Shown: piece by piece, positions 1 through 42,921 of the stretch
Layout: each line of letters starts with the position of its first letter
Numbering within the stretch: the stretch's first letter is position 1
IMG/VR virus record: IMGVR_UViG_3300022542_000376
Direction: 5' to 3' (one strand)
Source: a virus
Length of the DNA: 42,921 nucleotides
Translations under genes and position numbers: made by a program
Notes under the pieces: model-generated
Databases searched by the model: none
Seen by the model: the letters and a program-made list of their open reading frames with translations, nothing else
What the model was told of the DNA's origin: nothing

Positions 1-141
1 AGCCAAAGACGAGTCCGATGCAGGACAGGCAGCCCTGATAGATGATATGCCACCCACTCACGCAGCGGACGGTACGGACAAGTCCACTATTGACGAGACT
101 GACTACTGGACGGACGTGGATGACCTGGATGAGACCGGCAC
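1..141. repeat. Terminal overlap identical to 42781-42921 (circular closure signature)
   Basis: Base-by-base comparison of the two window ends. Confidence 0.97.
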
Positions 142-1222
142 AACTGAGAATCCTGACCTTACCGTTGAGACCATTCAAGCTTTGATGGTGACACACGTAG
201 CAGGCACTTTCGGCGCCGAAGACACAGAACTAAATAAGTACAACTACTCGCCCGACCAAGGCACCACCGTTTATACAGATGTGGAGGAGGGCGGTCGTGT
301 AATCCAGGTCGGGGCGGAGTTATCTGGAAGCCCCGTTAACTGGTGGACTCATGCAGGCTATTTTCCCTGGACGCCGGAGACCACTTCGCGTTCATGGACA
401 GAGGCTATCTTCGAGGCGTCTCAGTACGGCATCAGCCTCATAAATACTAAGACTGACCAGATGACAGTGCAGGTCATCTTCTTCGGGTCGAGCCATGAGT
501 GGAGCCCACCAGCCGGGGAGATTGAGTGGCTCTCAGGTATCATTGCAGCACAGTCAGGGCTCTCTGGTGTCCTAATCAGAGACCGTTCCCTCTCAGGTTC
601 CATTGGGAGTGTATCCGTGCTTACAGGGCTGTTAGTGCGAGATAGACCACTATCGGGCCTCATAGATAGCCAGTCTGGGCTATCAGGCTCATTAGGAAGG
701 CTTCGTTCTCTCTCAGGCTCAATAGATGCTGTCTCTGCACTTGTAGGCGCTCTGGAGGTGCTGAGGGAGCTACAGGGAGTCATTGCTGGCCAGTCTCAAC
801 TCACAGGCAACATAACTCGTGACCGTAAGTTGGCAGGCTCTATCGACGGACAATCCTCCATGTCTGCCACACTAAATGTTCTCATAGCCTTGCAGGGTAC
901 AATTGATGGTCAGTCCGGCCTCTCTGCTACGTTGAATGCTCTCTTGGCCCTGCAGGGTGCTATCGATGGACAATCCTCCCTCGATGGTACTCTTTCCATG
1001 GTGTACGGTCTGGGGGGTACTATCGAGGCCGTCAGTACCATATCAGGTAACCTTGTAGTGCTGTTTAGTTTATCGGGCACCATAGCCTGTGTATGTGTTA
1101 TTGATGGCAATCTAACTATCATACACCCATCACCACTACGGCTTGATGCTGCTGCAAGGGCCATACCACATCCTCTATTTGGTGATGCATGGCAGCAACC
1201 GAAGGAGCCTCCAGATGGCTAA
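2..1222 (+). CDS. Tail fibre protein, C-terminal part (continues 42101-42921 across the junction; whole protein about 634 aa)
   Basis: Same reading frame as 42101-42921 once 42780 is subtracted, with no stop between. Contains 20 decapeptide repeats. Stop TAA 1220-1222 overlaps the next start (ATGGCTAA). Confidence 0.8.
   Translation, partial: AKDESDAGQAALIDDMPPTHAADGTDKSTIDETDYWTDVDDLDETGTTENPDLTVETIQALMVTHVAGTFGAEDTELNKYNYSPDQGTTVYTDVEEGGRVIQVGAELSGSPVNWWTHAGYFPWTPETTSRSWTEAIFEASQYGISLINTKTDQMTVQVIFFGSSHEWSPPAGEIEWLSGIIAAQSGLSGVLIRDRSLSGSIGSVSVLTGLLVRDRPLSGLIDSQSGLSGSLGRLRSLSGSIDAVSALVGALEVLRELQGVIAGQSQLTGNITRDRKLAGSIDGQSSMSATLNVLIALQGTIDGQSGLSATLNALLALQGAIDGQSSLDGTLSMVYGLGGTIEAVSTISGNLVVLFSLSGTIACVCVIDGNLTIIHPSPLRLDAAARAIPHPLFGDAWQQPKEPPDG
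527..1126 (+). repeat. Coding tandem repeat: 20 x 30 nt (decapeptide x-L-x-G-x-I/L-x-x-x-x), alternating as a 20-aa super-repeat
   Basis: Track ORF aa 161-360 align in exact 10-residue register (WLSGIIAAQS/GLSGVLIRDR/SLSGSIGSVS ... VIDGNLTIIH). Confidence 0.9.
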
Positions 1223-6861: not shown

Positions 6862-8642
6862 GAACCCCAAATAGGACTTACACTGGCCTTGAACGGAGTG
6901 TGAATCCCAGGGAGCACATGGGCCAGGTCCTCAGGGAACTCTACTACACCATCCACTAGGATTTCATCATGCACCTGTAGGGCCTGATCCATGCCTAGTT
7001 TGTCACACTTGAGCATCGCTCGCTTGACTACACCAGCGGCGCTTCCCTGTGGGATGTAGTTAATAGCACACTTTTCAATATGCTCATAAGGAGCTGTGCC
7101 TAGCTCAGGCAGTTTGCACCTGCGTCCATCTAAGGTCTCGGCATAGCCTCTACTGGGGCCCTCCTCAATCTGCCGTTGTATCCAGTTGTAGGCAACCTTG
7201 TACCTAACTATCCATACTTCGCGGCAGTCGGTACACACAGATATAGGCAGCTTGGAGTGCTCCGCTAGGGTCTTGATTTTGGCATTGAAGGACATGGCAA
7301 AGTTGAAGTCCTTGGCCTTTCGCCTCACTGTTGAGTTATCTGGGTTGGAGTCGGGCCATAGGGTAAGTTGTGTATCAGCATGGACACTGCCCCCCTCCTC
7401 GTACACCTTCATCATCACAGGGTCTTGGGAGGCGTAGGCTATCATCCTCATCTCAATCTCACTATAGTCAGCCCAGGACCAGGCCCCTGAGTCTGGTGCA
7501 AACACATCCCTGATGGGCTTAGGAATGTTCTGCATATTGTCGTCATACGAGGCTAACCTTGATGTGCTAAGGTCTAAGCGGAAGTGTGTATATGCTCTGT
7601 CCTCACCCAGCCACTTCCGCAGGTAGGTGCTTAGTAGCTTGGCCACCTCTCTGTATTTTAGCACTACACCTGCTAGGGGGTCGGATAGCTCTGATAGTAC
7701 CTCGTCATCCGTTTTAAGCTGCTTCTTAGACCTAGTGAAAGGCAGCCAGTTCCCTCTCTGTGCGAGTATGAAGCCCACCTGCTGTGGACTGCTAGGATTG
7801 AAGAACTCTTTGTCACAGATGTCCTCATAGAACAGCTTTTCCTTACTATACTTCTCATACCAGTTGCCTACGCGGTTTGGTCGTAGGGCCAGCCCCCGCA
7901 TGGACATTCTCATCAGCAATGGTATGATACGGATGTCTACTTGGTAACAGTCCTTCATCTGAGGGCTGACGTAATATGAGGTAGGTTCCGTTGGGTCGTA
8001 CCCTTCAACTAGGTTAGGCTCATAGCTCCATGTGTGACCATCTGGCTCCCACCATGCACCACCACCCAGCTTGCTATGCAATCGTATGGTGGCTAGACAG
8101 TCTCTCATGCACTTGTGGGCGACTGTCTCGGTGGACAAGTCCAGCATGTTCTGGCGGGCCGGTAGGATGTCACTAATAGCGGCGATTATCATAGAGAGGT
8201 AGGCTCTGGCCATATCCTGTAGTGAGCCTACAGGCAACCCTTGCACACGCCCCATAAGGGATGAGTCAGCTAATAGTGGATGTTCCCTTGACCCATAGTA
8301 GACTGGCCCTATAAAGCCATCACCATCAGGGACATCTAACTCCTCCCGTGTCAAATAGTTGTCCAGGGCGTGGAGGTCATAGGGAGCATTGTGGAATGCC
8401 TTAACGCAAGGGCTGGCCAGTAGTCTCCAGGCCAAGGCCAGGTACTTGGATGTATGCCATGTAGGGAAGTAGACTGCCTCACGCTCATTCAGTCCTATAC
8501 CAAAGCCAATCATGCGACGGTCTTTGAGGGAGACAGTCTCAGTGTCCACCGAGATTAGAGTAGGGGTCTCCTGCTCCAACCGTGCTATGAGTTGGTCCTC
8601 AGTGTAGTTGTTAGGGCCAAGGTAGGCTATGTCAGCCACCAC
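6858..8642 (-). CDS. Family A DNA polymerase with 3'-5' exonuclease domain
   Basis: Exo motif VDTETVSL; pol motif A ADYSEIEMRMIAYASQD; motif B RRKAKDFNFAMSF; motif C QVHDEILVD. Start uncertain: GTG 8642 or 8639 just after the upstream stop, while the track gives GTG 8693. Confidence 0.93.
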   Translation of the reverse strand: MVADIAYLGPNNYTEDQLIARLEQETPTLISVDTETVSLKDRRMIGFGIGLNEREAVYFPTWHTSKYLALAWRLLASPCVKAFHNAPYDLHALDNYLTREELDVPDGDGFIGPVYYGSREHPLLADSSLMGRVQGLPVGSLQDMARAYLSMIIAAISDILPARQNMLDLSTETVAHKCMRDCLATIRLHSKLGGGAWWEPDGHTWSYEPNLVEGYDPTEPTSYYVSPQMKDCYQVDIRIIPLLMRMSMRGLALRPNRVGNWYEKYSKEKLFYEDICDKEFFNPSSPQQVGFILAQRGNWLPFTRSKKQLKTDDEVLSELSDPLAGVVLKYREVAKLLSTYLRKWLGEDRAYTHFRLDLSTSRLASYDDNMQNIPKPIRDVFAPDSGAWSWADYSEIEMRMIAYASQDPVMMKVYEEGGSVHADTQLTLWPDSNPDNSTVRRKAKDFNFAMSFNAKIKTLAEHSKLPISVCTDCREVWIVRYKVAYNWIQRQIEEGPSRGYAETLDGRRCKLPELGTAPYEHIEKCAINYIPQGSAAGVVKRAMLKCDKLGMDQALQVHDEILVDGVVEFPEDLAHVLPGIHTPFKASVSPIWGS

Positions 8643-25594: not shown

Positions 25595-25767
25595 TATGGG
25601 TAGTGTGTGTACACTCTTTAGCATTATATGACTCCCACACGACCCCTCCATAGTTACACTCTCTATGTAATAGATGTTTAGTAGTCGTCTGCGCCTTCAG
25701 ATGGCTATAAATGCACACCATTACACACGAAAACACTCAAATAGCTACGCATATCACTCCAAATAGC

Positions 25768-25797
25768 TTGACAGCCACCCCTCAAACGTGTTACAAT
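25768..25797 (+). promoter_or_regulatory. Sigma70-like late rightward promoter (TTGACA, 18 nt, TACAAT with TGn extended -10)
   Basis: TTGACA at 25768-25773 and TGTTACAAT ending at 25797; first late ORF starts at 25810. Confidence 0.65.
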
Positions 25798-25809
25798 GAG
25801 AATGGAGAG

Positions 25810-26487
25810 ATGGAACCTATGGAAACTCCAGAAGGCGTCCAGATCGTGCCCACAGGCCAAGCAGAGCCCAATCCTGACGACATCGAGCAGACTCTAAGGG
25901 CCCAACTTCCTCTATTTGAGAACCCAAGGAAGGCTGACTACCTCGCAAATAGGGCCTGTGGGTTCAGTATCAGAGAATCTGCTGCCCTTGCTCACGTTGC
26001 ACAGCACACTATCTCTGACTGGAGGCGCAATGACCCTGTATTTGCTGAATGGGAGGGCCAGAGGCTAACATACCTTCAGACCAATCTCCTTGGCATCGTC
26101 CAGAGGGCAAAGTTTGCCCGCAATATGATGCTAGGCATGATTATTGATGGCAAGGTGTTGCAGAAGGCAGCCTTTAGTGGCCTGGCCAGTTTAATAGAGG
26201 TGGAGAAGGAGTACCTCCTCAAGCTGGCCCGCAAAATGTACGATCCGCAGGCCCTTCTGGCCCTTGAGCGAGCCTGTGGTGAGGCACCTGATGACGGTGA
26301 TACTAATATCAGTATTGAGAAAGCTGTTGTCCTCGTGGATGGCCGAGAGGTGACGACAGTAGAGGCCAAGCAGGCTGCTGCTAGTCAACTACTAGAGCAG
26401 TTCACTGCCAATAGAAACAAGTTCATTGCAGATGATCGGGACGGGGAGCTAGTTGAAGGCAAGGTAGTCAATGTTGACGGTGAGTAG
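25810..26487 (+). CDS. terS: Small terminase subunit candidate (HTH-containing), about 225 aa
   Basis: Lies immediately upstream of terL. HTH-like FSIRESAALAHVAQHTISDWRRNDPVF. Start at 25810 or 25819; the track start 25711 lies upstream of the promoter. Confidence 0.55.
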   Translation: MEPMETPEGVQIVPTGQAEPNPDDIEQTLRAQLPLFENPRKADYLANRACGFSIRESAALAHVAQHTISDWRRNDPVFAEWEGQRLTYLQTNLLGIVQRAKFARNMMLGMIIDGKVLQKAAFSGLASLIEVEKEYLLKLARKMYDPQALLALERACGEAPDDGDTNISIEKAVVLVDGREVTTVEAKQAAASQLLEQFTANRNKFIADDRDGELVEGKVVNVDGE

Positions 26488-26616: not shown

Positions 26617-28038
26617 GTGGTAACGGCAACTAGGCCTCCACAACTGTCCCAGGTAGGTGCCCTGGCTATCGCTGCCCGTGATGGCGACCAGCGGACCTAT
26701 GCCAAGGCTGTCCATAACTATGAGTATGAGTTCTACCAGGATGCCTGGGCACATGGCCTAGAGACTCTCAACGAGGTAGTCATCGTTTGCCCTCCTGATA
26801 CCTACAAGTCCACAACCGTTCGCCACTTTGTTGAGCGGGCCATTGGGAGGAACCCCGACATCCGCATCCTCTGGATAATGAACGCTGGCGATCAGGCCAT
26901 GAAAAATGTTATGGCCGTCAGGCAAACCATAGAGGGCAACAATGTCTACCGTCAGGCATTTGGTATTGCAGAGGATAAGGACTCCCAATGGACTAACTCT
27001 GTTCTGTTTGTCAAGCGGGACTACAAGGGCCCTGACCCTACTCTCATGGGTGCTGGCATTAATGGTCCTTATCAAGGCCTCCACTTTGATATTGTTATCC
27101 TCGATGACCTCACTGACCAGGAGGACCCTCGCAGTCCCACTACCATGTTGGCCCAGGAGGAGAAGCTCCGTGGGGTCATCATTGACCGTGTGTTGGAGGG
27201 TGGACGTATCATTGGTATCTGCACTCGTTGGGGTGAGACCGACCTAGTGCCCACCTTTGCCGACATGGGTTTTACTATAGTCGAGATGCCTATTGTGGGT
27301 GATTACCCTTGGGGGCCAACTCTCTCACCTACACGCTTTCCCCCTGAGCGCGTCGAGATCATACGCCAGAAGAAGGGTGATGTCCTCTTTGCCATGACCT
27401 TTATGTGCAATCCACAGGCTGTTGGGGGTAATCTCATCAGCCGTGAGCATATTGGTTACTGGGAGAAGGATACATTCCCTACGAAGTCGATGCCCTTCTT
27501 CATGGGAATAGACCCATCAGCTTCCCTCAAGACCTATGCCGATCACTCCGCAATAGCTACAGTGGGAATAGATTGGAAAACGAGGGTCATGTACCTCGTA
27601 GACATGTGGTGTAAGAGGGTAGAGACTCCTGACCTTGAATCCCAAATCGTCAGGAAGTTTAGGCGCATGGGTGCTATACGGAGGATAGGCCTTGAGACTA
27701 AGGGTTTCCAGTTGAGCCTGTTGCAGGGTATGAGGAGGCGCTACCGGCTTCCGTTTAAGGAAATACCCTACCGCACCCGCCGCACCCAGATGCAGAAGGT
27801 AATAGCAGTTGATAATGACAAGGTGGGCCGGGCTCTCTACCTTGACTCTCTATTCTCTAGTGGACGGCTATTGATTCCAAGGGGCCTTCCGCTAGTAGAG
27901 GGTATTTCCCTCGAATCGGAACTTTGCACCATCCCTAATGGTAAAATGGACGACCGCATGGACGCCTTGGCCTTTGCCTGTGTGCTTGCTGAGGGCGCTA
28001 TGCCTATGAGTCTCAAGGTCCGGATAAGGGGGTTCTAG
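26617..28038 (+). CDS. terL: Large terminase subunit
   Basis: Deviant Walker A VCPPDTYKSTT, Walker B IVILDDLTDQED, nuclease-domain MGIDPSAS...HSAIATVGID...DDRMDALAFA. Confidence 0.88.
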   Translation: MVTATRPPQLSQVGALAIAARDGDQRTYAKAVHNYEYEFYQDAWAHGLETLNEVVIVCPPDTYKSTTVRHFVERAIGRNPDIRILWIMNAGDQAMKNVMAVRQTIEGNNVYRQAFGIAEDKDSQWTNSVLFVKRDYKGPDPTLMGAGINGPYQGLHFDIVILDDLTDQEDPRSPTTMLAQEEKLRGVIIDRVLEGGRIIGICTRWGETDLVPTFADMGFTIVEMPIVGDYPWGPTLSPTRFPPERVEIIRQKKGDVLFAMTFMCNPQAVGGNLISREHIGYWEKDTFPTKSMPFFMGIDPSASLKTYADHSAIATVGIDWKTRVMYLVDMWCKRVETPDLESQIVRKFRRMGAIRRIGLETKGFQLSLLQGMRRRYRLPFKEIPYRTRRTQMQKVIAVDNDKVGRALYLDSLFSSGRLLIPRGLPLVEGISLESELCTIPNGKMDDRMDALAFACVLAEGAMPMSLKVRIRGF

Positions 28039-29990
28039 TGGCAGAGATGACAGAAGTTGATGCCGCCTACGTCAACCGCCTTCGAGAGGAGTTAAAGACC
28101 GAGTTCTCAGGTCTCCATAAGCGTATGTCTGAGATTGAGTCGATACGCTACCTGGAGGATGACATAGGGCTGCCCGCAGAGGAACGCTCCTCTGGCCTGG
28201 AGATCCGCATTGGCGCGACAGGTGAGTTGATCGAGAACGTTAAGGCTGCTCTCACCTCCAATGTCCCTGTGGTGGTCTTCAAGCCTTTGCGCTCTGGTTC
28301 TGATGCTAAGGAGAACAGCAACAAGCGGGAGAAGTTCTGGGCGGAGTACCTCAAAACTATAAACACTCCTGTGCCTGTGTTCCCTGAGCTTGCGGATGCG
28401 CAGGCTGGACCTGGTGTTGGTATCCTCAAAGGCATGTTCTACCCTTGGCCAAAGACAGAGCGTAGACGCCTCAAGAGTGAGCCCGGAACAAAGGCAGGGG
28501 ATAAGGCCTATAAGGATCGCCAGAAGGCCCTTAAGCGTCTGTGGGGGCCGCCCTTTAGGACCATCACCATCCATCCCCTTACGTTCTTCTTTCGCCTTGG
28601 TGATGGCAACCAGATTGTAGAGTCTATTGAGCACTCCTACAAGCCTAGGCGTGTCCTTGAGAAGGCCTATGGCAAGTTTGGTGTTCAATCGGAGCCTGTG
28701 AAGGGTGATGAGGCCCTGCGGCAAGCTGGAGTTGCTGGGCAGCCCGATGAGGAGATCAGGCCACTCCCCGCTGGTGCAGACACCTCCACTATGGCCCTTG
28801 TCACTGAATACTGGAACCCTGAACTCTACCAGGTCTATGTCAACAATGAGAAGGTGTGGGAGGAGAAGGATCCTAGCGTCCGTTATTTCCTGGCTGTGGG
28901 GCGCACTACCAGCAGTAAGGACCCCGACAAGTTTGGTATGTCTGTGGCCGAACTAATGAGGCACAACGAGCCTACTATCAACCGTGCCCTTACGCGCGTG
29001 GCCGAGGCTATGGAGATAGTTGTTCGTCAACGTCAGACCGTAGAACTTCCTGAAGGTTCTAGTGAGGGCCTGATGGATCCTCCTCGAAGGCTTGTTACCA
29101 CGGGGGAGGGTGAGGGTGGTGAGTCTAACGAGCCTGTGGCTCGCACCTGGAGGTTCAAGGCAGATGTGGCCGAGGCTCTACCCGCTGGTGCCAAGCTTGT
29201 CAATGTCTTTGAGGGTGCCGAGAGTGTCTTTGGCGCCTTGCCCTTCATCCAATTTATGATGCAGATTCTAGGTACTCATGGTGTCTCACCTATCTTCAAG
29301 GGTATCCCACCTGGTGCTGCTGGCTCTGGCTACCGTGACAACTCCATCTACCTTATGGCTCTAAGTCAGTTCCAGTACATCCTAGACTCCTTCGCCGCCT
29401 GTGTCACCGAGTATGTCCGCTGGATGGAGGAGCAGGTTGTAAAGAAGGCAAAGCAGGAGGTGTTTGTGAATGATCTCTCGCTTACGCCCGAGGACATACG
29501 TGACTTTCCCTCTATCATTGAAATCCACATTGAGCCTCTTCTACCGCAGAACATCATCGCTATGGGCCAGTTCTACGCTCGTATGCACGCCGAGGGTCAC
29601 GCAACCCGCCGCATGGTTATTGAGAAGGGTATGCGGGAGCAGCAGCCTGAGGAGATCATCCGTGAGATGTACCTCGAGGATGCCCAGGCCATGATGCAGC
29701 CCATACTCATTCGAGATGTCCTCCAAACTGTGGGTGCTATACCGCCACCTGCGCCGGCCCTGGTTGGCCCTGATGGTAAGCCTATCAGCAGTGGTGGTAA
29801 CGGTGCTACTGGCGGCCCTGGAGGTGTAGAACAACTCATGGCCGAGATCATGAGTGGGAAGGGCACCAGAGGACAGCGTCCCGGTGCTGGTGAGGCTGGT
29901 CAGGCTATGGGTGGCTACACCCGTGCTGGCCAATCTCGCCAACCGCCAGAGGAGGCCGGAGCTTCGCCCGGATTGGAGCAGCCTGTCTAA
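28038..29990 (+). CDS. Portal protein candidate, 650 aa
   Basis: Size and position directly after terL (TAGTG overlap); Gly-rich acidic C-terminus. No motif-level confirmation. Confidence 0.65.
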   Translation: MAEMTEVDAAYVNRLREELKTEFSGLHKRMSEIESIRYLEDDIGLPAEERSSGLEIRIGATGELIENVKAALTSNVPVVVFKPLRSGSDAKENSNKREKFWAEYLKTINTPVPVFPELADAQAGPGVGILKGMFYPWPKTERRRLKSEPGTKAGDKAYKDRQKALKRLWGPPFRTITIHPLTFFFRLGDGNQIVESIEHSYKPRRVLEKAYGKFGVQSEPVKGDEALRQAGVAGQPDEEIRPLPAGADTSTMALVTEYWNPELYQVYVNNEKVWEEKDPSVRYFLAVGRTTSSKDPDKFGMSVAELMRHNEPTINRALTRVAEAMEIVVRQRQTVELPEGSSEGLMDPPRRLVTTGEGEGGESNEPVARTWRFKADVAEALPAGAKLVNVFEGAESVFGALPFIQFMMQILGTHGVSPIFKGIPPGAAGSGYRDNSIYLMALSQFQYILDSFAACVTEYVRWMEEQVVKKAKQEVFVNDLSLTPEDIRDFPSIIEIHIEPLLPQNIIAMGQFYARMHAEGHATRRMVIEKGMREQQPEEIIREMYLEDAQAMMQPILIRDVLQTVGAIPPPAPALVGPDGKPISSGGNGATGGPGGVEQLMAEIMSGKGTRGQRPGAGEAGQAMGGYTRAGQSRQPPEEAGASPGLEQPV

Positions 29991-30295
29991 TGCCCATTAT
30001 AGCTGGCCCTGAGCTAGACAAGATCAAGAAGGAGCTAATCGAGTGGTATCTAACCACGAGAGAGTGGCTCATCAACACCCTAGAGGAGGGTGGCTATCCC
30101 TACGGTGCTCATGAGCTATCACCTGCGGAGCAACTCCAAAAGTTTATGGCGATGACTCCTGAGGAGTGGCGCTACATGACAACTAAGCTGGCCGAGAGGT
30201 ATCGTGGTCGGCCCGACCAGCGTGAGTTGGTTGAGGCTGACCTCAGAGACTACACGACTCGCATGACTCGGATGATGGGAGGTGTGGCAAGATGA
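29990..30295 (+). CDS. Hypothetical head-module protein, 101 aa
   Basis: TAATG overlap with the portal stop. Confidence 0.55.
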   Translation: MPIIAGPELDKIKKELIEWYLTTREWLINTLEEGGYPYGAHELSPAEQLQKFMAMTPEEWRYMTTKLAERYRGRPDQRELVEADLRDYTTRMTRMMGGVAR

Positions 30296-31080
30296 TACGC
30301 AAGGTGTTTGTGGGTGGCAAGCCTTACCTGTTGGACGAGGATGGCATCATGCTCCCACCTGTCATGGGAGGGCAGGAAGTCTATGGCCCACCTGTTCCTT
30401 CAGATTATGTGCCTCCGGTGGGTTCGCAGACGCCCCCTGGTGGCGTCTATGACGCTGTTACTGGGCAGCCACCAGGTACTCCCATAATGCCCAACCCTGA
30501 TGACTACTGGGTTAAGATGGACTCGGATCCAAACTCTCTCACGTTTGGCCAGGAGTTACCGGCGTCACCTGGTGAGGCAGGGGCCTGGCAAAACGTCTAC
30601 TCCTACAACAAAGACCTGGCCGACTACTTAGAGTTCGGTACGCCTGGGGGCCCTGGTGGCCCTGGAGCCACTACTGGCCCTACCGCTGCCGAACTGGCCA
30701 TTGAGCAGTCGAAGGTGCAGGCCGCTAACATGGCCAATTACCTTGATGGTGTGATACGAGGTGTTGAGGCCGAAATATCCGCTGGCCGTCTTAGCCTTGA
30801 ACAGGCTGAGGCAGAGTTCAATCGCCGCATGGATGCTCTTGGTGAGGCTGGCACTCAGATGGCTGCGATGTGGCAGTGGACTGTGCCGGAGGATGCTGGT
30901 GCTCTACATCCTGACATCAGGGCAAACCTGGGCATGGAGCCCTGGGAGTCTCAGCCTATGACCTGGGACCCTTATGCCCTTGCACAGCAGATTATAGCTG
31001 AGACTCCTGAACTCACCGGTCAGCCAATTGCAACCGATCCAATTCAAGAGGCCATTGAGCTGGCCCAGGGGCTCATCTAG
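30292..31080 (+). CDS. Pro/Gly-rich head-module protein, 262 aa
   Basis: ATGA overlap with the upstream gene. Confidence 0.55.
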   Translation: MIRKVFVGGKPYLLDEDGIMLPPVMGGQEVYGPPVPSDYVPPVGSQTPPGGVYDAVTGQPPGTPIMPNPDDYWVKMDSDPNSLTFGQELPASPGEAGAWQNVYSYNKDLADYLEFGTPGGPGGPGATTGPTAAELAIEQSKVQAANMANYLDGVIRGVEAEISAGRLSLEQAEAEFNRRMDALGEAGTQMAAMWQWTVPEDAGALHPDIRANLGMEPWESQPMTWDPYALAQQIIAETPELTGQPIATDPIQEAIELAQGLI

Positions 31081-31091
31081 GAGGTTCCATT

Positions 31092-31904
31092 ATGGCTCCT
31101 GAATACCCTTATCAGACCTGGCAAAGGCTCTTTGGGCGCGGTTGGCCTTCGTTCGCTGAACTAGCCGCTTTGTATGCTAGGCGAGGCATCAAAGCCGCAC
31201 CTGGTTCATATGAAGGCAACATAGCTCTCCAGAAGGCTGTGCTAGGAGGCTGGGACCCGTATGCACCAGTTCCTAAACCTGCACCTAAACCTGCACCAAA
31301 GCCTGCCCCTAAGCCTACGGGCAAGCCTGCGGAGTATATAACTCGTTCTCCGTCTTCTACTGCGATGCAGATCGAGCCTGGGATGTGGCAGGCTATTGAG
31401 GAGGAGCGCCTTGAACTAGAGCGCCAGATTGCTGCGGAGTTAGCTCGGCTGGAGGCGGAGCGCATTGAGCTAGATCGGCAGCGGGCGGAGGCGGAGCGTT
31501 GGGCTATAGAGGGGAAGCTAGCCGTCTCACCTATTGACTTTGTAGCCTACGAGTTGTACAAGCGTGAGTTAGAGGCAGGAGGCTACACACCCAAGACTGG
31601 CGCAGCGGCCACCGATCCTGAGATTCAAGCTATGGTCAGCCAGATAACAGGGGAGGTAGGTGGTGGCGGCTATGGTGGAGAGTTTGGCACCTACATTCCT
31701 GCTATCCAACAGTGGTCACGCTCAGGGTTCCAGGATGTGAGCCCTGATGAAATGGCAATCATTAGTAGTTTCCTGAAGGCGGGACTAACTCCCTCCGGGG
31801 ACGGGGAGGAGTTCAGCTATGACCCTCAGGAATACTTCCGTGAGATGGAAGAGGGATTCGTCCCCTTCATCCAGACACCAGCACAAACCCGTTATCAGTT
31901 CTAA
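31092..31904 (+). CDS. Protein with a (PKPA)4 repeat and a coiled-coil segment, 270 aa
   Basis: AGGAGG RBS. The 12-nt tandem repeat at 31269-31331 encodes VPKPAPKPAPKPAPKPTGKPA. Confidence 0.6.
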   Translation: MAPEYPYQTWQRLFGRGWPSFAELAALYARRGIKAAPGSYEGNIALQKAVLGGWDPYAPVPKPAPKPAPKPAPKPTGKPAEYITRSPSSTAMQIEPGMWQAIEEERLELERQIAAELARLEAERIELDRQRAEAERWAIEGKLAVSPIDFVAYELYKRELEAGGYTPKTGAAATDPEIQAMVSQITGEVGGGGYGGEFGTYIPAIQQWSRSGFQDVSPDEMAIISSFLKAGLTPSGDGEEFSYDPQEYFREMEEGFVPFIQTPAQTRYQF

Positions 31905-31914
31905 GGAGGTTATC

Positions 31915-32172
31915 ATGCCAGATGGAAGGCCTTATGGAGTAGGGTCTGCTGTAGACACTGACCCACGCCGACGCCGGATGTTACAGGTTACACAGGGCTT
32001 TCTGAATCAAGGACCTGCTAGTGCCGGTGCAGAGCCTCGTACTCGCCCTAGCACGTACCCAGATGTTAGAGGGTTTGCCAGCACCCCTGTTGGCAAAATG
32101 CTCCTCAGGAACATTATGGCACGGATGCAGGGGGCACGAGGACAAGCTCAGCAGAGGCCTATTAGGAGGTAG
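31915..32172 (+). CDS. Small basic protein, 85 aa
   Basis: ATG 31915 with AAGGAGG 5 nt upstream. The track start 31819 overlaps the upstream gene. Confidence 0.55.
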   Translation: MPDGRPYGVGSAVDTDPRRRRMLQVTQGFLNQGPASAGAEPRTRPSTYPDVRGFASTPVGKMLLRNIMARMQGARGQAQQRPIRR

Positions 32173-32174
32173 CC

Positions 32175-35100
32175 TTGCCTAACTTCTGGGAGTATGAGCC
32201 TCAAACAGAATACTCCTCCCGTCGCTCTGGCCGATTCAGGCGTCGGGCTACCCAAACGGCCTTTAGGCGGTTTGCGCGTTCTGCTATGCAGCAGCGTGGC
32301 TACGACCCTGACATGCTTACTCCTCTAGGAACTGATGTCTCCTTGAGCCCTGGGGAAATGGAGAGCATGGTTCCTGGTGCTGAGCAGCGGCTAAGGAGGA
32401 TGCAGGACCAACTCAAGCGCCTTGCTGACATGGCCGAGATGCCTCAGTTGGCGTTTGGGGCTACACCAGACCCTATGGGAGAGGTTGCCAAGGCCTACAC
32501 TGGGGCTACTCCACAGGAGCGTAGTGCTGCTACCTCTCTTGTAGGTGAGGACTATCTACGCCACCAGGAGCTACTAAAGGAATACTCCCCTGAGCAGATA
32601 GAGATATGGCGGGATGTGGCCCGCCGCACTGATAAAATCATGTTGGAGTCAGGGCTAGAGGGGCCTCATCTAGTGAATGGTAAGATGCTCAAGGATGTCC
32701 ATTGGGATGAGGCACAGGAGGAGGCTGTTCAGCAGGCTATCAAATCACTAAGCTGGGATGAAGTTAAGACTATTAGCCCTAGCAAGGGCCTCTTTGGTGA
32801 TCTTCTAGGCAACTTTGGCAAGTTCATGTCCTGGATGGAACATGGTGCTGGCCCTCTGATAGGTGGCCCGCTGGCTCGTACTGCCGATGAGGGCTTTCCC
32901 TTCCTCGACCCTGAGGGCCATACTGCCTTTGAGCGTGGTGCTGAACTGAGCCGACCTGTGGCCCAAGACCTACTCGAAGGCACTGCTATGCGCTTTGAGA
33001 TGATGGAGGAGGGATTTGAGGAGGTCACAGGCATCCATACCCGTATAGTCAGTGATGCTACTAGGAGTCAGGTTGCAGAGGATATACTCACAGAAGTCAT
33101 CAACCCTGCTGCCCTAGTCCTTGTGGCACCTATAGTCATGCAGGGTACAGCAGGCCTCCGTGGTGGTGCCCTTGCCAACAAGATGGCGTCTAACCTCCTT
33201 GGCACCGGCATGGAACCTGAGTTGGTAGGGGGAACTGCTAGAGGGCTGACTGCTATTTGGAGGGGTGGCCTTGGGGTCCTACAAACTGTCCCCAGGAATG
33301 TCAGGAATACTCGTGTATTCCAGGCTGCTCTACATGGTGAGGCCACTGTACCTAAGATGGCTAGAGCCACGGATGAGGTCGTAACATCCTTCCGGGGGGC
33401 CGAGAAGGGTGGGATGGAGATGGGCCTGTTTGGTACTGAAGGGTCCGGCCTTTATGTGACCGGTGACCGCGCACTTGCGGAATCCTTTGGCGATGTACAA
33501 GAGATTCAGCACATCGCCCCTCGGAATCCTCTCATTGTCAAGAATGAGCCCCTCTATATACTTAGGGAGGACCCTAGGGTGTATGAGGTAGTCAGTTCTA
33601 CTGATTCCCTTTGGGCGCGGCTGAACAAGGAGGCCGTGAAGGAGGGAAAGCTCACTGCCGAAATCGTAGCCCAGAAGGGCACTCACTCCCCCTTTGGGAT
33701 GGAGGCATGGCCTAGAGCGATGAGGCGGACCTCACGCATCCTGGCACAGAAGATTCGTGCGGCGGGATATGATGCCGTTAGGGTACTTGATGTGGATGGT
33801 GCCTGGGAGGTACTGTTAGATCCTAGTCTGACGCGTGATATTTTGGCACCGAATCTACTTAGACGGGCTGAGGAGCTATTTACCTCCTCCAAGAAGGCTG
33901 TAGCAGAGGCCCTGCAAGAGACTAATGCCTACCGTGCAGGAGTCAAGGATGGAAGGCTCTCACAAGAGGCTCTTGATCAGTCTCTTATGGCCTTGGGGCA
34001 GCGTCGCAAGGAGTTCACCAAAGCACGTAAGGCTCTGAACACTGCTCGAATCACTAGTGAGCATGATGAGGTGGTGGCCAGTCTCCGTAGCGCTGGTGTG
34101 AATGATGAGACTTCAGGCCTTATTGGTCGTGCCTTTGAGCAGAGTGCTAAGAAGGTAGTGGCAGAGGAAGTCCTCCTCAACGCTAAGTGGTGGAGGCAAT
34201 GGCCTGCTGCCGTTGTGGGGGTCATCACAGGAACTCCACCTGGAGTTGTAGGCCGTCTGGCTAACCGACGCGAGATACTCCTAGGTGCCCTCCGCCGCTA
34301 CACAGCCGAAACCACTAACCCTATCTTCTCGGATGTCCAAAAGATGTTGAACAAGGAACTCCCTCATATCACCTACATTGGTGAAACCAAGTGGGCTAGT
34401 GAGGCTATGGGCACCTACAAGGCCTACCATGTCATCCAACATCCTGAATGGTATGATGGCCTTTCCTATGCTCTCAAGAAGCGTATGGGTGACGCTCAAG
34501 AGGCAATGCGTATCCGTCTAGAAGCAGCAAAGGCTATGGGCTATCCCATTAAGGCTCTGGATGGTGCCTATCTAGAGCAACTATGGGAAATCCCACAGTC
34601 ACACCTGACCGTTGGGGACGTACCTCTACCTGGCCGTGTAAGTGTTGCCAAACCCCGCCTCTTTGATGACTACATGAGGGGCATCAACCAGGGCTTTGTC
34701 CCAAAGGAGATGACTGTTGAGGAGCTAATGCAGCACTCCTCTGGTCTACTCGATCAGGCTATCTCCGATGCCTGGATGCGCCAAGAGGTTCTTCGTCGCT
34801 TTGGCAAGGTAGGTGGTAAGACAAGGCCAGGTACGGCAGCGTTCCGTCATGTTCTCTACAAGGGTTGGAGTGGCCCTGAGGATATAGTAAACTGGGTCAG
34901 CAAGATAGATGCCCCTGTGGGCTCTAACATCCGTGGCATTGGCAACCTGTCTGCTGCCTTCCGTGGCACCGTGTTCGGCCTCGCTGACATTGCTGTAACT
35001 GGTGTGCAGTGGCCCCTATCAATTGCCCACGGTGGCTTTCAGGTGGGCCTCGGAACCCTTACCAGGTCCTTGGAACTGGCTGGTATCGACCTCTTCCATG

Positions 35101-36974
35101 TCTATGCGAAGGATGCAACCTTCATGGGTCGCCTTGTTGATGGTGCGGAGCATGGGCTTCATGTAGGTATCGGCCCCTCATCCATTACGCTCAAGGGTGG
35201 CACCGTCGTAAAGTATGCTCCGAAGGTGGGCAAGACCATAGATAAGCCTATCTCCAAGGCTATTGATGTGCTGGCTCAGGCACAGTTTGGCCATGCTTTG
35301 ACCTTTGTGCGGCTTCGCATGTATGAGGGCAACCTTATACTCCTCAAGATGGTGGGTAAGAACATTGATGACCCTGCTGTGCGCCGCATGGCTGCTGAGT
35401 GGGCTAACTCCTGTACTGGTGCCTCCCGTGGGGCCATGACTAGAGGCCGTCGGGCCCTTGAAAGCATCTCTCTCACCTCCGTCCAGATGACAAGGGCTAA
35501 CCTCTCCGTCTATGGCCAACTAATCTCACAGCTTAGTCCCAAGGCTGGCCGTATGGAGCGTCTGAGGGCTGCTGTGACTCTAGCCAACCTTGGTGCATAC
35601 ACCTACGGCATTCAATACCTATTCAACTCTGCCTTTGGTGATGGGCCTCAGGAGTGGATACCTGGCCGCTCCGACTGGGCCACTATCCGTATTGGTGGCA
35701 CAACCGTACCCATCATGCCCCAGCGTTCTATCCTCAGAGCCATGGACAAAAGCATCCGAATCATAGAGGACTATGCCAAAGAGGAGCCTGACACCAGCCT
35801 GTCTGATATTGCTAAGGCATGGTCACAGGTGGCTGTGGGTAAGGGCTCTCCTCTGGTGGGTGCTCCTTTGGCTGGCCTGTTTGGTATTGGCTTTGAGCCT
35901 GAAACTGGTCAGTTCCATGTTGGTGACCTTTCACTCAAGGGTAGAGCTATGGGAATAGCCCCTGTACCTCCCCTTGTGGAACAGATTGCCTTCCAGGAGC
36001 GCGATGTCTTGTCACTCACTACTGCTGGTCTTGGCTTCAACCCCTATGATACACTATCAGGTAAGTTGCTCCGTGAGCAGTTCAGTAGTGTCACCAAGGA
36101 GGAGTTGAACTGGGAGAGCCCCGCTCATTCTGCCCTGATTGAGGATACTCCTGCACTTAGTAAGCTGTGGGAGAAGTCTAAGGAGGAGTCCCGCGAGTAC
36201 GGCTCTCAGTCTGCTATAACCTCCTTTGAGATCAAGCAGGAGATCGAGCAGGGTGAGCAGGATAAGGGTATTGTGGTCCTAGCTGAGGCAGTCAAGTCTG
36301 GTGACCCTATGGCTACCCAGAGGTGGTCCGATGCCCGTGGTAGTTTCCTTGGCTGGCGTGATGGCAAGTGGGATGAGAGGTTCACTGCGCGTGATCCTAA
36401 GACAGAGATTGGTGTCCTAGTCCAGGAACTCTATGCCATCAACCCTAAAAGTCCTGAGTTCACTACCTCTAGTGGAGTAACTGACTGGAGTGCCTTCAAT
36501 GATGCCAGGGATGCTGTCAAGGCTAAGATGTCTCAGGCTGATAGAAAGGCTATTGAGGACAAAGAGAAGTTCATTAATCCTGTGGCAGAGGCCATTGACA
36601 AGGAGTTTAGGGCTGCTCAGGACTCTCTACGCCCTCTCTGGGACCTAGAGGATGGAGTCTGGGAGCGTCTCCAAGGCAAGTATCCTGACTTCCAACAGTA
36701 CCCTAACATACAGGGTTTCAAGGACGCTAAGGTCCAAGAACTAATTAACAATGGTGTGCCACAGGAGGACATTGCGTGGCGGCTTGAACGGTTGCCTATC
36801 ATCTCCAAGATTGGTGAGCTAGTCCAGACCATACGGTTCCAATATCGGATGCAGCACCCTGATGTGGATGCTCTCTGGGTCAAGTGGTATGGCGGCACAC
36901 CTGCTAGACAGCAAGCACAGGCCAGGGGGTCATCAACAACTCGTGGACGCTTTGGTCAGCGAAGGAGTCGTTGA
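32175..36974 (+). CDS. Giant 1,599-aa protein, putative packaged/ejected polyvalent virion protein with an ART-like block (aa about 400-552)
   Basis: TTG start with AGGAGG 5 nt upstream. Uninterrupted ORF between portal and scaffold. Motifs FRG / GLYVTGD..AESFG / AAGYDAV / AWEVLLDP. Confidence 0.6.
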   Translation: MPNFWEYEPQTEYSSRRSGRFRRRATQTAFRRFARSAMQQRGYDPDMLTPLGTDVSLSPGEMESMVPGAEQRLRRMQDQLKRLADMAEMPQLAFGATPDPMGEVAKAYTGATPQERSAATSLVGEDYLRHQELLKEYSPEQIEIWRDVARRTDKIMLESGLEGPHLVNGKMLKDVHWDEAQEEAVQQAIKSLSWDEVKTISPSKGLFGDLLGNFGKFMSWMEHGAGPLIGGPLARTADEGFPFLDPEGHTAFERGAELSRPVAQDLLEGTAMRFEMMEEGFEEVTGIHTRIVSDATRSQVAEDILTEVINPAALVLVAPIVMQGTAGLRGGALANKMASNLLGTGMEPELVGGTARGLTAIWRGGLGVLQTVPRNVRNTRVFQAALHGEATVPKMARATDEVVTSFRGAEKGGMEMGLFGTEGSGLYVTGDRALAESFGDVQEIQHIAPRNPLIVKNEPLYILREDPRVYEVVSSTDSLWARLNKEAVKEGKLTAEIVAQKGTHSPFGMEAWPRAMRRTSRILAQKIRAAGYDAVRVLDVDGAWEVLLDPSLTRDILAPNLLRRAEELFTSSKKAVAEALQETNAYRAGVKDGRLSQEALDQSLMALGQRRKEFTKARKALNTARITSEHDEVVASLRSAGVNDETSGLIGRAFEQSAKKVVAEEVLLNAKWWRQWPAAVVGVITGTPPGVVGRLANRREILLGALRRYTAETTNPIFSDVQKMLNKELPHITYIGETKWASEAMGTYKAYHVIQHPEWYDGLSYALKKRMGDAQEAMRIRLEAAKAMGYPIKALDGAYLEQLWEIPQSHLTVGDVPLPGRVSVAKPRLFDDYMRGINQGFVPKEMTVEELMQHSSGLLDQAISDAWMRQEVLRRFGKVGGKTRPGTAAFRHVLYKGWSGPEDIVNWVSKIDAPVGSNIRGIGNLSAAFRGTVFGLADIAVTGVQWPLSIAHGGFQVGLGTLTRSLELAGIDLFHVYAKDATFMGRLVDGAEHGLHVGIGPSSITLKGGTVVKYAPKVGKTIDKPISKAIDVLAQAQFGHALTFVRLRMYEGNLILLKMVGKNIDDPAVRRMAAEWANSCTGASRGAMTRGRRALESISLTSVQMTRANLSVYGQLISQLSPKAGRMERLRAAVTLANLGAYTYGIQYLFNSAFGDGPQEWIPGRSDWATIRIGGTTVPIMPQRSILRAMDKSIRIIEDYAKEEPDTSLSDIAKAWSQVAVGKGSPLVGAPLAGLFGIGFEPETGQFHVGDLSLKGRAMGIAPVPPLVEQIAFQERDVLSLTTAGLGFNPYDTLSGKLLREQFSSVTKEELNWESPAHSALIEDTPALSKLWEKSKEESREYGSQSAITSFEIKQEIEQGEQDKGIVVLAEAVKSGDPMATQRWSDARGSFLGWRDGKWDERFTARDPKTEIGVLVQELYAINPKSPEFTTSSGVTDWSAFNDARDAVKAKMSQADRKAIEDKEKFINPVAEAIDKEFRAAQDSLRPLWDLEDGVWERLQGKYPDFQQYPNIQGFKDAKVQELINNGVPQEDIAWRLERLPIISKIGELVQTIRFQYRMQHPDVDALWVKWYGGTPARQQAQARGSSTTRGRFGQRRSR

Positions 36975-37246
36975 TGAAAACTTGGGCAGAACGTGTAGCA
37001 ACTGCTGAGTCCTCCAAATGTGGTCACTATGGAGGCTGTGGCTGTGCAGCCTTTCAGGGCTGCTGTATGGAGTGTCCTCTGCCCGCGTCGGCATGCGATC
37101 GGCCATCTGGCTGGGGGCACAAGCATAACCTGCTCCGTGACGATGAGATGCGTGAGTTGAAACGAGGAGGAGTACCAGTGCAGGACATAGCCAATAAGTT
37201 TAGCATGTCAAGGCGGAATACCTTTCGCGTCCTAGCAGGGGGGTGA
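36974..37246 (+). CDS. Cys-rich protein with a C-terminal helix-turn-helix, 90 aa
   Basis: GAAGGAG RBS. Eight Cys in aa 16-42, then GVPVQDIANKFSMSRRNTFRVL. Confidence 0.6.
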   Translation: MKTWAERVATAESSKCGHYGGCGCAAFQGCCMECPLPASACDRPSGWGHKHNLLRDDEMRELKRGGVPVQDIANKFSMSRRNTFRVLAGG

Positions 37247-38285: not shown

Positions 38286-39221
38286 ATGGCTGACCTAACC
38301 ATGCTTGAGGCGGCCAAACATAGCCAGGACAAGGTTGAGCGTACGGTGGCCAAGACCATCGTAGAGGCTTCTCCTATCCTGGAATACCTCCCCATCAAGA
38401 TCATCAATGGCCCTGCCTACCGTTACCACCGTGAAGCTACCCTTGGTGGCATTGCGTTCCGTGGTATTGGTGGGACCTACACCGCTGATTCCGGAGTTAT
38501 CAATCCCGAGTTTGAGCCTCTGGTTATCATGGGTGGTGAGGTCTCTATCGACAACTTCGAGGTTGACGTGATGGGCAACCTCCTGGACCTCAAGGGCAGT
38601 AAGTACCGGATGAAGGCCCGTCAGGCCGGTATCACCTTCTCGGAGTATTTCTTTGAGGGTGACACCGTTGTAGACGAGTTCTGCTTTGATGGCCTTCGCA
38701 AGCGCCTCGCCGGCAACCAGATCATGCGTGCGGCCGATGGTGGGGCCGTTCTAACTCTAGCCATGCTAGACGAACTCTTGGATGCTGTCATTGGCGAGAA
38801 CTCGCAGAAGGTGCTCTTTATGAGCCCCTTCATGCGCCGCGCCGTGACTACTCTTTGTAGGGCCCAGACTGGTACTGCCCTCATCCACTTCACGCAGGAT
38901 GCCTTCAACCGGCAGCAAATAGCCTACGCCACCTGTCCCATCCGTGTTGTTGTCCGTGAGGACGATGGCAGTACCTTCTTCAACTTCGACGAGGACGATG
39001 CAACGGCTGGTGGTGGGAACATGGATACCACTTCTATCTACTGTGTGCGGTTTGGCCAGGACTACGTTCATGGCATCTCCAACAAGGCTCTACCTGGAGT
39101 CAAGGACTTTGGAGAGACAGAGGCCGCACCCAAGCACCTGGGCCGTATCGAGTGGTATCCTGGTCTAGTGGTGAAGCACCCTAGGGGCGCTGCAAGGCTT
39201 TGCCAGATCGACGACGTGTAG
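38286..39221 (+). CDS. Major capsid protein candidate (HK97-fold type), 311 aa
   Basis: Position after the scaffold, size, and an N-terminus typical of capsid families; no search run. Confidence 0.7.
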   Translation: MADLTMLEAAKHSQDKVERTVAKTIVEASPILEYLPIKIINGPAYRYHREATLGGIAFRGIGGTYTADSGVINPEFEPLVIMGGEVSIDNFEVDVMGNLLDLKGSKYRMKARQAGITFSEYFFEGDTVVDEFCFDGLRKRLAGNQIMRAADGGAVLTLAMLDELLDAVIGENSQKVLFMSPFMRRAVTTLCRAQTGTALIHFTQDAFNRQQIAYATCPIRVVVREDDGSTFFNFDEDDATAGGGNMDTTSIYCVRFGQDYVHGISNKALPGVKDFGETEAAPKHLGRIEWYPGLVVKHPRGAARLCQIDDV

Positions 39222-42104: not shown

Positions 42105-42921
42105 TTGTTGGGGCAGGAGGGGCAGAGGAGCGGCACACCAGCAATGCAACCGCTACGGGCCTGTGGGCTAGCCCCGTCTATATAGAAATCCACACGGTCA
42201 AAAAGTACACTGGCGCGGCCTGTTACTACTTTAAGCAGCTTGCTACTGGTAATGCGCCCCAGAGCGCAAATCAGGCTAGCGGGTGGTGGTCGTGGGCCAA
42301 TTGGTTCTCAGGGTTTAATGATGGCACCTACAGGCTAATCTTTAAGCTGTGCAACGACGATGGCGGGAGGTTCATAGGCTGGAGCAAGGGGACACAGACC
42401 TATGAATCCAAGCTGACTATGTGGAAGGGGCCAAGTGCTGGCACCGTGCTGGTGGACTCAGGCGCGACACAGTTCACCGCCGCTATGTGGCACCGAGTCA
42501 AGCTGGAGTTCGCTGCTGGGCATTGGACTGCTTGGGCTAGTGACGACGGTGCTGCCTGGACGCAGGTATTCACCTACAATGATAGCGGAAATTTTACGAC
42601 TATGGGCGTCATGCACATGAGCCTAAACGCCTCTACTGACGAGACCAAGGGAGAAGCCTACGGCCAGCAGTATGCGGACGATTGTATCTACTGGGACGAC
42701 GATGGGGACAACTGGAACTCACGCATCCCTGCTGACGACTTCCCCCGCATCTCCCTGGCACATATGCCTAACACTGTCGGAGCCAAAGACGAGTCCGATG
42801 CAGGACAGGCAGCCCTGATAGATGATATGCCACCCACTCACGCAGCGGACGGTACGGACAAGTCCACTATTGACGAGACTGACTACTGGACGGACGTGGA
42901 TGACCTGGATGAGACCGGCAC
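42101..42921 (+). CDS. Tail fibre protein, N-terminal part (ConA/LamG-like lectin-type domain); continues at 2-1222
   Basis: GTG start overlapping the upstream stop (GTGA), with GAGAGG 7 nt upstream. Hand-translated with no stop to the window end. Missing from the ORF track because the window ends. Confidence 0.75.
   Translation, partial: MIVGAGGAEERHTSNATATGLWASPVYIEIHTVKKYTGAACYYFKQLATGNAPQSANQASGWWSWANWFSGFNDGTYRLIFKLCNDDGGRFIGWSKGTQTYESKLTMWKGPSAGTVLVDSGATQFTAAMWHRVKLEFAAGHWTAWASDDGAAWTQVFTYNDSGNFTTMGVMHMSLNASTDETKGEAYGQQYADDCIYWDDDGDNWNSRIPADDFPRISLAHMPNTVGAKDESDAGQAALIDDMPPTHAADGTDKSTIDETDYWTDVDDLDETG
42781..42921. repeat. Terminal overlap identical to 1-141
   Basis: Base-by-base comparison. 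Confidence 0.97.

Follow-up and report, generated by a model that had tools for sequence, protein, structure and literature searches.

The record IMGVR_UViG_3300022542_000376 of the virus collection IMG/VR comprises 42,921 nucleotides (nt), and this whole stretch is referred to here as the window. Its largest open reading frame (ORF) lies in the head module and codes for a giant protein of 1,599 amino acids (aa; 1,599 codons plus stop, 176.5 kDa, isoelectric point (pI) 6.8), whose architecture, family, predicted fold and possible function are the subject of this report. The window ends in an exact terminal direct repeat of 141 bp, which indicates a circular assembly and a complete genome of 42,780 bp. 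The giant gene accounts for 11.2% of this unique sequence, and the second-largest ORF has 650 aa, in agreement with an earlier reading made from the letters alone (the sequence-only reading), which had described it as the largest gene with about 11% of the genome. Given a stop codon frequency of about 3/64, chance can be ruled out as the origin of an open frame of 1,600 codons, and the coding nature of the ORF is confirmed by collinear homologues. A search for tandem repeats inside the gene found none.

The ORF starts with a TTG codon. The N-termini of two relatives, P0002 and P0006, follow the pattern M..(F)W(E/Q)YEP and align with residues 4-9 of the window protein. This alignment, together with the Shine-Dalgarno sequence AGGAGG, indicates that the TTG at position 32175 is the genuine start codon and that the Arg-rich stretch RRSGRFRRR close to the N-terminus, to which the sequence-only reading had drawn attention, is indeed translated. 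In the public gene call (P0001; 1,562 aa, starting at the ATG at 32286), 37 conserved codons are missing, among them those for FWEYEP and the Arg-rich stretch.

Architecture of the giant protein

The protein is composed of conserved modules and variable stretches (Table 1). The module that defines the family carries the motifs KNTxFGxxDxxVxGxQ, DGLHxGxGPS, QFG...YEGNL and MTRA and is predicted with good confidence (predicted local distance difference test score, pLDDT, 75-95). The Gly-rich hydrophobic segment quoted in the sequence-only reading falls within this module, the most widely conserved one of the family. In full-length members, the stretch that precedes the family-defining module is variable in length (median 850 aa, 5-95% range 637-1,369), whereas the stretch that follows it is near-constant (median 300 aa, interquartile range 276-320). 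These length distributions point to a constant C-terminal chassis combined with a variable N-terminal half. Within the latter, the core module is shared by every one of the 19 close relatives, but no more than about 30 of the 165 family proteins retrieved possess it; its pLDDT is 50-77.

The spacer between the core and the helical module ranges from 50 to 390 aa in 22 relatives, and the distance from the core to the family-defining module reaches 2,853 aa in P0036. The window protein carries at this place an insert of its own (residues ~392-560), which resembles none of these spacers. In the nearest relative, P0002, which is 71% identical downstream, the insert is replaced by a linker of 50 aa. 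Where the core meets the variable slot, a motif, (G)GG[RE]L, is found repeatedly: in P0002 (residue 404), P0006 (514), P0013 (402), P0014 (410) and P0016 (479 and 562); P0010 and P0011 have GGGEL at 394 and 362, respectively. The motif flanks the insert on both sides in P0016, and in P0006 a copy follows the insert and a degenerate GGRR precedes it. The window protein does not have the motif, the equivalent position being about residue 390 (nt ~33345). This element may be a processing site or a linker.

The only strongly hydrophobic helix of the protein lies in the core (residues 304-322). For two conserved hydrophobic helices of the family-defining module (residues 932-950 and 1132-1150), the Kyte-Doolittle value averaged over the family is 1.0-1.3, and a value of 1.6 is attained by only 33 of 154 members. 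The idea of a conserved transmembrane pore was rejected, as there is no conserved canonical transmembrane helix, and the pore-forming domains envisaged in the sequence-only reading are not supported. It is possible that these are latent membrane-active helices.

Sequence searches and family members

The giant protein, scanned against Pfam as a whole, in seven segments and as module consensus sequences, gave no match above threshold. A single sub-threshold match was obtained when the N-terminal 200 aa were scanned alone, to PF18305 (DNA_pol_A_exoN, the C-terminal domain of a 3'-5' exonuclease; E 2e-4, 22.0 bits against a cut-off of 23.5). The same Pfam scans of the whole protein and its segments revealed no lytic transglycosylase domain. 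PHROGs and NCBIfam, against which four module consensus sequences were scanned as well, yielded no match, and neither did single-sequence and profile searches of the sequences in the PDB. Similarly, tblastn with the full protein and with the consensus of the family-defining module found nothing in 50,697 GenBank phage records, and there was no match in 72,556 plasmids.

Relatives were found in larger collections. A word-indexed search of 5.8 billion protein clusters returned 19 proteins, which are 1,361-1,839 aa long and all devoid of Pfam domains. An exhaustive HMMER search of 1.84 billion representatives with residues 195-1394 as query retrieved 268 proteins at E<=1e-3, 212 of them at E<=1e-10; the 268 are representatives at the 50% clustering level, and nearly all family members found in this way are 1,200-4,200 aa long. 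Ten clusters that were looked up contained only sequences from metagenomes or metagenome-assembled genomes (MAGs), none with an informative name. A scan of GTDB with the alignment of the close family found nothing; with a broader subgroup it found three MAG contigs only, in bins assigned to Gemmatimonadaceae, Burkholderiales and Actinomycetes, from which no reliable host follows.

Predicted fold

An AlphaFold2 run on residues 600-1599 with 19 sequences gave a mean pLDDT of 58 for the family-defining module, and a Foldseek search of the PDB with this model was empty. It was replaced by a run on residues 195-1394 with 48 sequences, including matches of the exhaustive search. The resulting model has a mean pLDDT of 74 and a predicted template modelling score (pTM) of 0.67, with pLDDT values of 85-97 across residues 564-1394. 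Alpha-helices by far dominate the modelled fold, which also has a few beta-hairpins. Its first element is a long antiparallel hairpin formed by helices 356-397 and 403-445 of the modelled segment, where pLDDT exceeds 90 from segment residue 370 (residue 564 of the protein). The sequence-only reading was therefore wrong in denying the protein a monotonous helical character, and right in considering it unlike a tape measure: the model is globular, and Foldseek matches to tape measures have E-values of 0.05-0.5 only.

Against the PDB, Foldseek found nothing at E<=1e-3 with the 48-sequence model. The hairpin superposes on the one with which AcrA/MexA docks to TolC (76 aa, root-mean-square deviation (rmsd) ~1.2 Å, E ~0.7). 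This match was set aside as that of a generic coiled coil and not homology, although such a geometry attracts interest in a protein whose path may lead across the periplasm. A virion RNA polymerase was also considered and rejected, since neither a D-x-D-x-D or NADFDGD-type metal-binding motif nor a match to an RNA-polymerase fold was found.

The search of BFVD, in contrast, gave nine matches at E<=1e-3. The best two (E 2.2e-9 and 3.3e-9, ~805 aligned columns) and another one (E 3e-5) come from split proteins to which UniProt gives the name 'Large polyvalent protein associated domain-containing protein'; in each case the match is to a later chunk. Other matches, with E-values up to 7e-3, bear the names PolyVal ADP-ribosyltransferase, Helicase/UvrB, Type I restriction enzyme, DNA methylase, LT_GEWL (lysozyme) and UDP-GlcNAc (zeta-like) kinase. 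Tape measures appear from E 0.05 only, and 'internal virion proteins' at E ~0.4-0.5. Since the significant matches are functionally coherent, the relationship is likely to be real and not the result of generic helix matching. At the level of predicted models, the chassis thus resembles the rear part of phage polyvalent proteins.

Cargo domains of relatives and the insert

Pfam scans of 53 family members revealed domains in the variable halves of some of them. PF03496 (ADPrib_exo_Tox) occurs in two members, P0036 (residues 1836-1962, E 1.6e-14) and P0116 (residues 463-579); in P0036 it carries the motifs YRG...STT...EAEF of a classic R-S-E ADP-ribosyltransferase (ART). In one scan of 30 members, two had PF18760 (ART-PolyVal) and one had ParB_N. 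The ART-PolyVal domain of P0103 (approximately residues 368-494, E 1.3e-6) scores 29.6 bits, just below the gathering score of 31.2 bits. MutS_I was found in one scanned member. Every ART domain that was located lies N-terminal to the chassis, as does the insert of the window protein.

The insert, which the sequence-only reading had called an ART-like block, is unique among 165 family proteins, and its G+C content equals that of its flanks. Scanned alone, it had no Pfam match at E<=10 and only chance-level matches in the PDB (phmmer); no relative was found in GenBank phages (tblastn), IMG/VR or JGI metagenomes, and there was no similarity to the ART domain of P0036. None of the top 150 matches of the exhaustive search scores best within the insert. 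A word-indexed search with residues 401-600 came back empty, a result that is uninformative for such short queries because it missed even the parent protein P0001. The AlphaFold2 model does not define the fold of the insert (pLDDT 26-47, as expected for a sequence without homologues).

Candidate ART motifs can nevertheless be discerned in the insert, namely FRG (residues 406-408), GLYVTGD (425-431), AGYDAVRV (530-537) and WEVLLDP (544-550). It has no S-T-S motif, and the spacing of the candidate catalytic residues is atypical for an ART. By eye, the insert shares with the ART-PolyVal domain of P0103 the elements [FH/FR]G, G-L-[YF]-[VF]-T, AGYD[AG]V and [YE]VxLDP. The similarity between the two is weak: in two-sequence blastp, E is 0.003 for a stretch of 34 residues, and the Smith-Waterman score has a z value of 4.2 and is reached by 4 of 1,000 shuffles. 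The ART block of P0103 itself found nothing in GenBank phages by tblastn. With no significant match to an ART profile, the insert is at most a putative and unproven ART.

Genomic neighbourhood

In the window the giant gene is placed in the order TerL, portal candidate, giant gene, major capsid protein, with small ORFs in between (Table 1). The sequence-only reading had located it between portal and scaffold. PHROGs matches verify TerL and the major capsid protein, the latter being also 41% identical by tblastn to annotated major capsid proteins, while the labels of portal and scaffold rest on position: neither candidate has a match in Pfam, PHROGs, NCBIfam, the PDB or GenBank phages. The ORF of 91 aa that follows the giant gene appears to be translationally coupled to it through a TGATG overlap and an AAGGAG sequence. 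Its weak match to a resolvase-type helix-turn-helix domain (HTH_7, PF02796, E 0.006) is unexpected within a head module.

The position in the head module was kept in all six related contigs examined (L001, L002, L003, L004, L012 and L013), where TerL and a gene of 600-977 aa at the portal position are followed by one to eight small ORFs, the giant gene and genes of the capsid region. In L004, one of these contigs, every gene has its place in the same order as in the window, with identities of 66% for TerL, 55% for the portal candidate and 77% for the capsid protein. The ORFs of 101, 262 and 270 aa upstream of the giant gene are also collinear with L004, whereas the ORF of 117 aa has no tblastn match there. 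In the five distant loci (L001-L003, L012 and L013), tblastn at E<=1e-4 found no match to the portal candidate or the capsid protein of the window, yet the chassis of the giant protein aligns, with E-values down to 1.6e-59. Being alignable where portal and capsid proteins are not, the chassis is either under unusual constraint or has passed from one phage lineage to another.

Two neighbours in related loci carry recognisable domains. The L004 counterpart of the window ORF of 270 aa (L004 8700-9458; window 31092-31904; 44% identity over 140 aa) has a LysM domain, and in L013 a papain-like Peptidase_C1 is encoded just upstream of the giant gene (7345-8271). These proteins may be partners of the giant protein, with a part in processing or in peptidoglycan binding. 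The gene for P0036 (4,199 aa) takes up 20% of a contig of 61 kb.

The tail side of the genome extends from about 39.2 kb across the junction of the circle to 6.9 kb. No gene resembling a tape measure was found in the genome; the only other tail-side ORF of comparable size codes for a protein of 616 aa that by eye does not look helical and has neither a family match nor a tblastn match in the GenBank phage records. Since no gene like a tape measure was found, a short-tailed morphology is likely from the gene content. An ORF that begins at about 42.2 kb leaves the 3' end of the window and continues, across the circular junction, as the ORF listed at 47-1222. By eye, its product has the look of a lectin beta-sandwich (LamG/ConA-like) and is probably a tail fibre or receptor-binding protein. 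The phage is poorly annotated overall, most tail-side ORFs having no match in PHROGs or Pfam.

Table 1. Features of the giant protein and of the surrounding head module (positions refer to the window)
Feature	Residues	Position	Strand	Remarks
Terminal direct repeat		1-141 and 42781-42921		exact, 141 bp
Small-terminase candidate		25711-26487		weak PHROG matches
TerL (large terminase)		26617-28038	+	phrog_38, E 2.4e-66
Putative portal, 650 aa		28038-29990	+	by position and size
Four small ORFs (101, 262, 270, 117 aa)		29990-32172	+	between portal candidate and giant gene
Shine-Dalgarno AGGAGG		32164-32169	+	5 nt before TTG start
Giant ORF	1-1599	32175-36974	+	TTG start
Conserved basic N-terminus	1-60	32175-32354	+	pI 10.7; 'Nterm' hidden Markov model (HMM) in ~20 relatives
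FWEYEP		32184-32201	+	within basic N-terminus
RRSGRFRRR	16-24	32220-32246		Arg-rich
Variable region	61-194			
PF18305, sub-threshold	134-189	32574-32741		DNA_pol_A_exoN
Core module	195-391	32757-33347	+	contains SNLLGTGMEP
Hydrophobic helix ILTEVINPAALVLVAPIVM	304-322	33084-33140	+	in core; Kyte-Doolittle 2.0
Lineage-specific insert	~392-560	33348-33854	+	between core and helical module
Antiparallel alpha-helical hairpin	~550-639	33822-34091	+	2 x 42 residues; opens conserved chassis
Helical module	561-860	33855-34754	+	
Family-defining module	861-1300 (HMM envelope 905-1300)	34755-36074	+	in all of ~160 retrieved proteins
Gly-rich hydrophobic segment	924-954	34944-35036		within family-defining module
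C-terminal helical module	1301-1599	36075-36971	+	pLDDT ~80 (19-sequence run)
Arg-rich tail		36882-36971	+	pI 12
AAGGAG		36962-36967		before 91-aa ORF
91-aa ORF		36974-37246	+	TGATG overlap with giant gene
Scaffold candidate, 324 aa		37308-38282	+	by position
Major capsid protein		38286-39221	+	phrog_212, E 1.6e-61

Discussion

The family, its chassis and the insertion slot are new to Pfam, PHROGs, NCBIfam and cultured phages; the kind of protein to which they may belong, that of giant polyvalent or ejection proteins delivered with the virion, is already known. On balance, we lean towards the view that the giant protein is an internal virion protein of polyvalent type, packaged in the head and ejected. 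This view draws on analogy with the class of phage polyvalent proteins conceived by Iyer, Burroughs, Anand, de Souza and Aravind (2017; PMC5512222), with the virion RNA polymerase (vRNAP, gp50) of phage N4 and with gp47 of phage phi24B, and it is by such analogy that we infer packaging, ejection, the formation of a conduit and catalysis by the insert. Like the polyvalent proteins, the window protein is a giant polypeptide of a portal-terminase phage, encoded among virion genes (a setting found in the window and in the six related loci), and is modular, with variable inserts of effector type. In its modelled fold, its chassis resembles later chunks of proteins that bear polyvalent-type domain names, and its relatives carry ART, ART-PolyVal, ParB and MutS-I domains, of which ART, ParB and MutS-I figure in the inventory that Iyer et al. 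give for polyvalent proteins (PMC5512222). In contrast to them, it lacks any recognised effector domain, carries one cargo block at most and is thus not literally polyvalent: where the class calls for at least two distinct effector, enzymatic or nucleic-acid-binding domains, only one orphan insert was found. The injected protein of polyvalent type proposed in the sequence-only reading accordingly gains from the conserved head-module position, the fold kinship in BFVD and the effector domains of relatives, and falls short of the strict multi-domain definition.

Other systems offer partial parallels. Gp47 of the short-tailed Shiga toxin (Stx) phage phi24B, a polyvalent protein of 2,811 aa, has been found in virions by proteomics, and a role as an encapsidated ejection protein was proposed for it (bioRxiv 10.64898/2026.04.10.717836); its gene follows the tail genes, whereas the window gene lies near the portal candidate. 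In N4 gp50, the C-terminal region is required for encapsidation, whereas the N-terminal region serves injection (quoted in PMC5512222). By analogy, the constant C-terminal region of the giant protein could serve encapsidation. A host-modifying enzyme packaged in the head is also known from phage T4, whose Alt protein is an encapsidated and injected ADP-ribosyltransferase (summarised in PMC5512222). The presence of PF03496 in two family members fits this concept, although the giant protein shows no sequence relation to Alt, is far larger and has a conserved helical chassis, and its insert is not demonstrably an ART.

Several observations weigh against an ejected protein of polyvalent type. The kinship in BFVD is one between predicted models, at 11-13% identity, with TM scores of 0.28-0.46 and rmsd values of 13-16 Å. 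No Pfam LPD domain was detected by sequence, nor were MPTase and MuF-C, in the whole protein, its segments or the consensus sequences, and the window protein is devoid of both a recognised effector domain and a conserved canonical transmembrane helix. Comparison with phi24B gp47 by hhalign and hmmsearch was not significant. Likewise, no match to solved ejection proteins of short-tailed phages (T7 gp14-16, or the ejection proteins and vRNAP of Schitoviridae if deposited) was obtained by sequence or profile searches of the PDB or by Foldseek (E<=1e-3), the content of our PDB copy in such proteins being unchecked. Finally, the family is known from metagenomes only, and the upstream gene owes its identity as a portal to its position.

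Alternatively, the protein may be purely structural, a component of an internal core or ejectosome like gp15 and gp16 of T7 or the ejection proteins of N4, with the insert as a structural or host-range spacer. This would be consistent with the fact that the universally conserved part is the helical chassis and not the inserts, and with the absence of a detectable enzymatic family or a confident fold for the insert, which must be dispensable for core function since the nearest relative P0002 has none. The known ejection proteins of short-tailed phages (T7 gp14-16; N4 gp50 and its two companions; PMC13434306, PMC5512222) are also large and mostly helical, and the genome of the window, in which no tape-measure-like gene was found, is compatible with such a system. 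They differ from the window protein, in which neither an RNA-polymerase motif nor a lytic transglycosylase domain was detected. Moreover, a structural role does not readily account for the bona fide enzymatic and nucleic-acid-binding cargo that relatives carry at the equivalent position or for the weak ART-PolyVal-like motifs of the insert, and no fold match to solved ejection proteins was found; we consider it rather unlikely. A role in head assembly without ejection, as a portal accessory akin to the MuF/SPP1 gp7 minor head proteins or as an internal scaffolding core that would act in procapsid assembly or in the anchoring of DNA ends, appears improbable, even though genes of MuF type sit directly after the portal gene (PMC5576092, PMC5512222), as the giant gene does just downstream of the portal candidate, and though both termini are Arg-rich and could bind DNA. 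The MuF domain (PF04233) gave no match on segments even at E<=10, a separate scaffold candidate adjoins the capsid gene, and a size of 1,200-4,200 aa together with enzymatic cargo in relatives is hard to explain for a pure assembly factor. The likeness to the MuF polymorphic toxins (Jamet et al. 2017; PMC5576092) suggested in the sequence-only reading suffers from the same absence. These systems, too, combine a constant carrier with a variable payload delivered from the capsid, but with reversed polarity: in the window protein it is the C-terminal ~700 aa that are conserved, and variation falls to an N-terminal or internal part. There is no C-terminal toxin and no evident immunity gene, and the protein is 3-10 times larger.

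A non-virion protein, such as a factor for host takeover or replication or one associated with the membrane, might merely be encoded in the late operon. The lack of sequence homology to any virion component would fit this possibility, which we nonetheless judge quite improbable in view of the strictly conserved position in the packaging and head module across divergent phages, the likely translational coupling with neighbouring head-module ORFs and the fold kinship with a class predicted to be encapsidated. As for a tape measure or another tail protein, the great length and mostly alpha-helical nature of the protein and the failure to find any other tape-measure-like gene in the genome would be in keeping with it. 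It can hardly be credited, however, given that the gene comes after the portal candidate and before the capsid gene instead of after tail chaperones, that the tail region of the collinear contig L004 has a separate gene of 758 aa preceded by two small ORFs, and that the model is globular and not an extended coil. PHROGs and Pfam gave no tape-measure match, and the Foldseek E-values for tape measures (0.05-0.5) compare with 2e-9 for polyvalent proteins. Full-length homology to a known tail or tape-measure protein, which the sequence-only reading had named as one finding that would speak against it, was seen neither by sequence nor by Foldseek.

If the giant protein is indeed a packaged and ejected protein of polyvalent type, it may be viewed as consisting of three parts: a delivery chassis (residues ~561-1599) composed of the hairpin, the helical module, the family-defining module of ~400 aa and a tail of constant length of ~300 aa; an N-terminal core (residues 195-391) together with the basic, Arg-rich termini, which may contact DNA; and, in between, a variable slot that in this phage would hold a unique cargo block of ~170 aa. 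The protein would be synthesised late, along with the head genes, and the chassis would bring it into the procapsid near the portal. It would then leave through the portal and the tail, before or with the DNA, the helical chassis aiding the passage of the genome across the envelope as ejection proteins of short-tailed phages do. The cargo block would finally reach the cell and act on a host target.

Injected proteins that accompany the phage DNA act ahead of any phage gene expression and are therefore prime candidates for pre-emptive counter-defence. To our knowledge, few of them have been studied experimentally. The present family is unannotated and recurrent in metagenomes, and it combines a confidently modelled chassis with a variable slot. 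The window protein, with its insert, and P0002, 71% identical and without it, form a natural pair for addressing the function of the insert. Should the chassis be a packaging and ejection module, it would provide a sequence handle for finding virion-delivered proteins in metagenomes and for harvesting their cargo domains for functional screening, as well as a possible means of bringing foreign proteins into capsids. It is tempting, if tentative and somewhat doubtful, to go further and to see in the C-terminal 700-1,000 aa (hairpin, helical module, family-defining module and constant tail) an undescribed universal carrier domain of head-packaged phage proteins, its fold shared with annotated polyvalent proteins, that would load very large cargo-bearing proteins into capsids and convey them by way of the tail to the host cell; the region upstream would be the cargo slot. 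If so, the N-terminal halves of the 268 representatives, mostly unannotated and of 640-1,370 aa, would together with the orphan block of the window protein constitute a large reservoir of early-injected effectors directed against the host or its defences.

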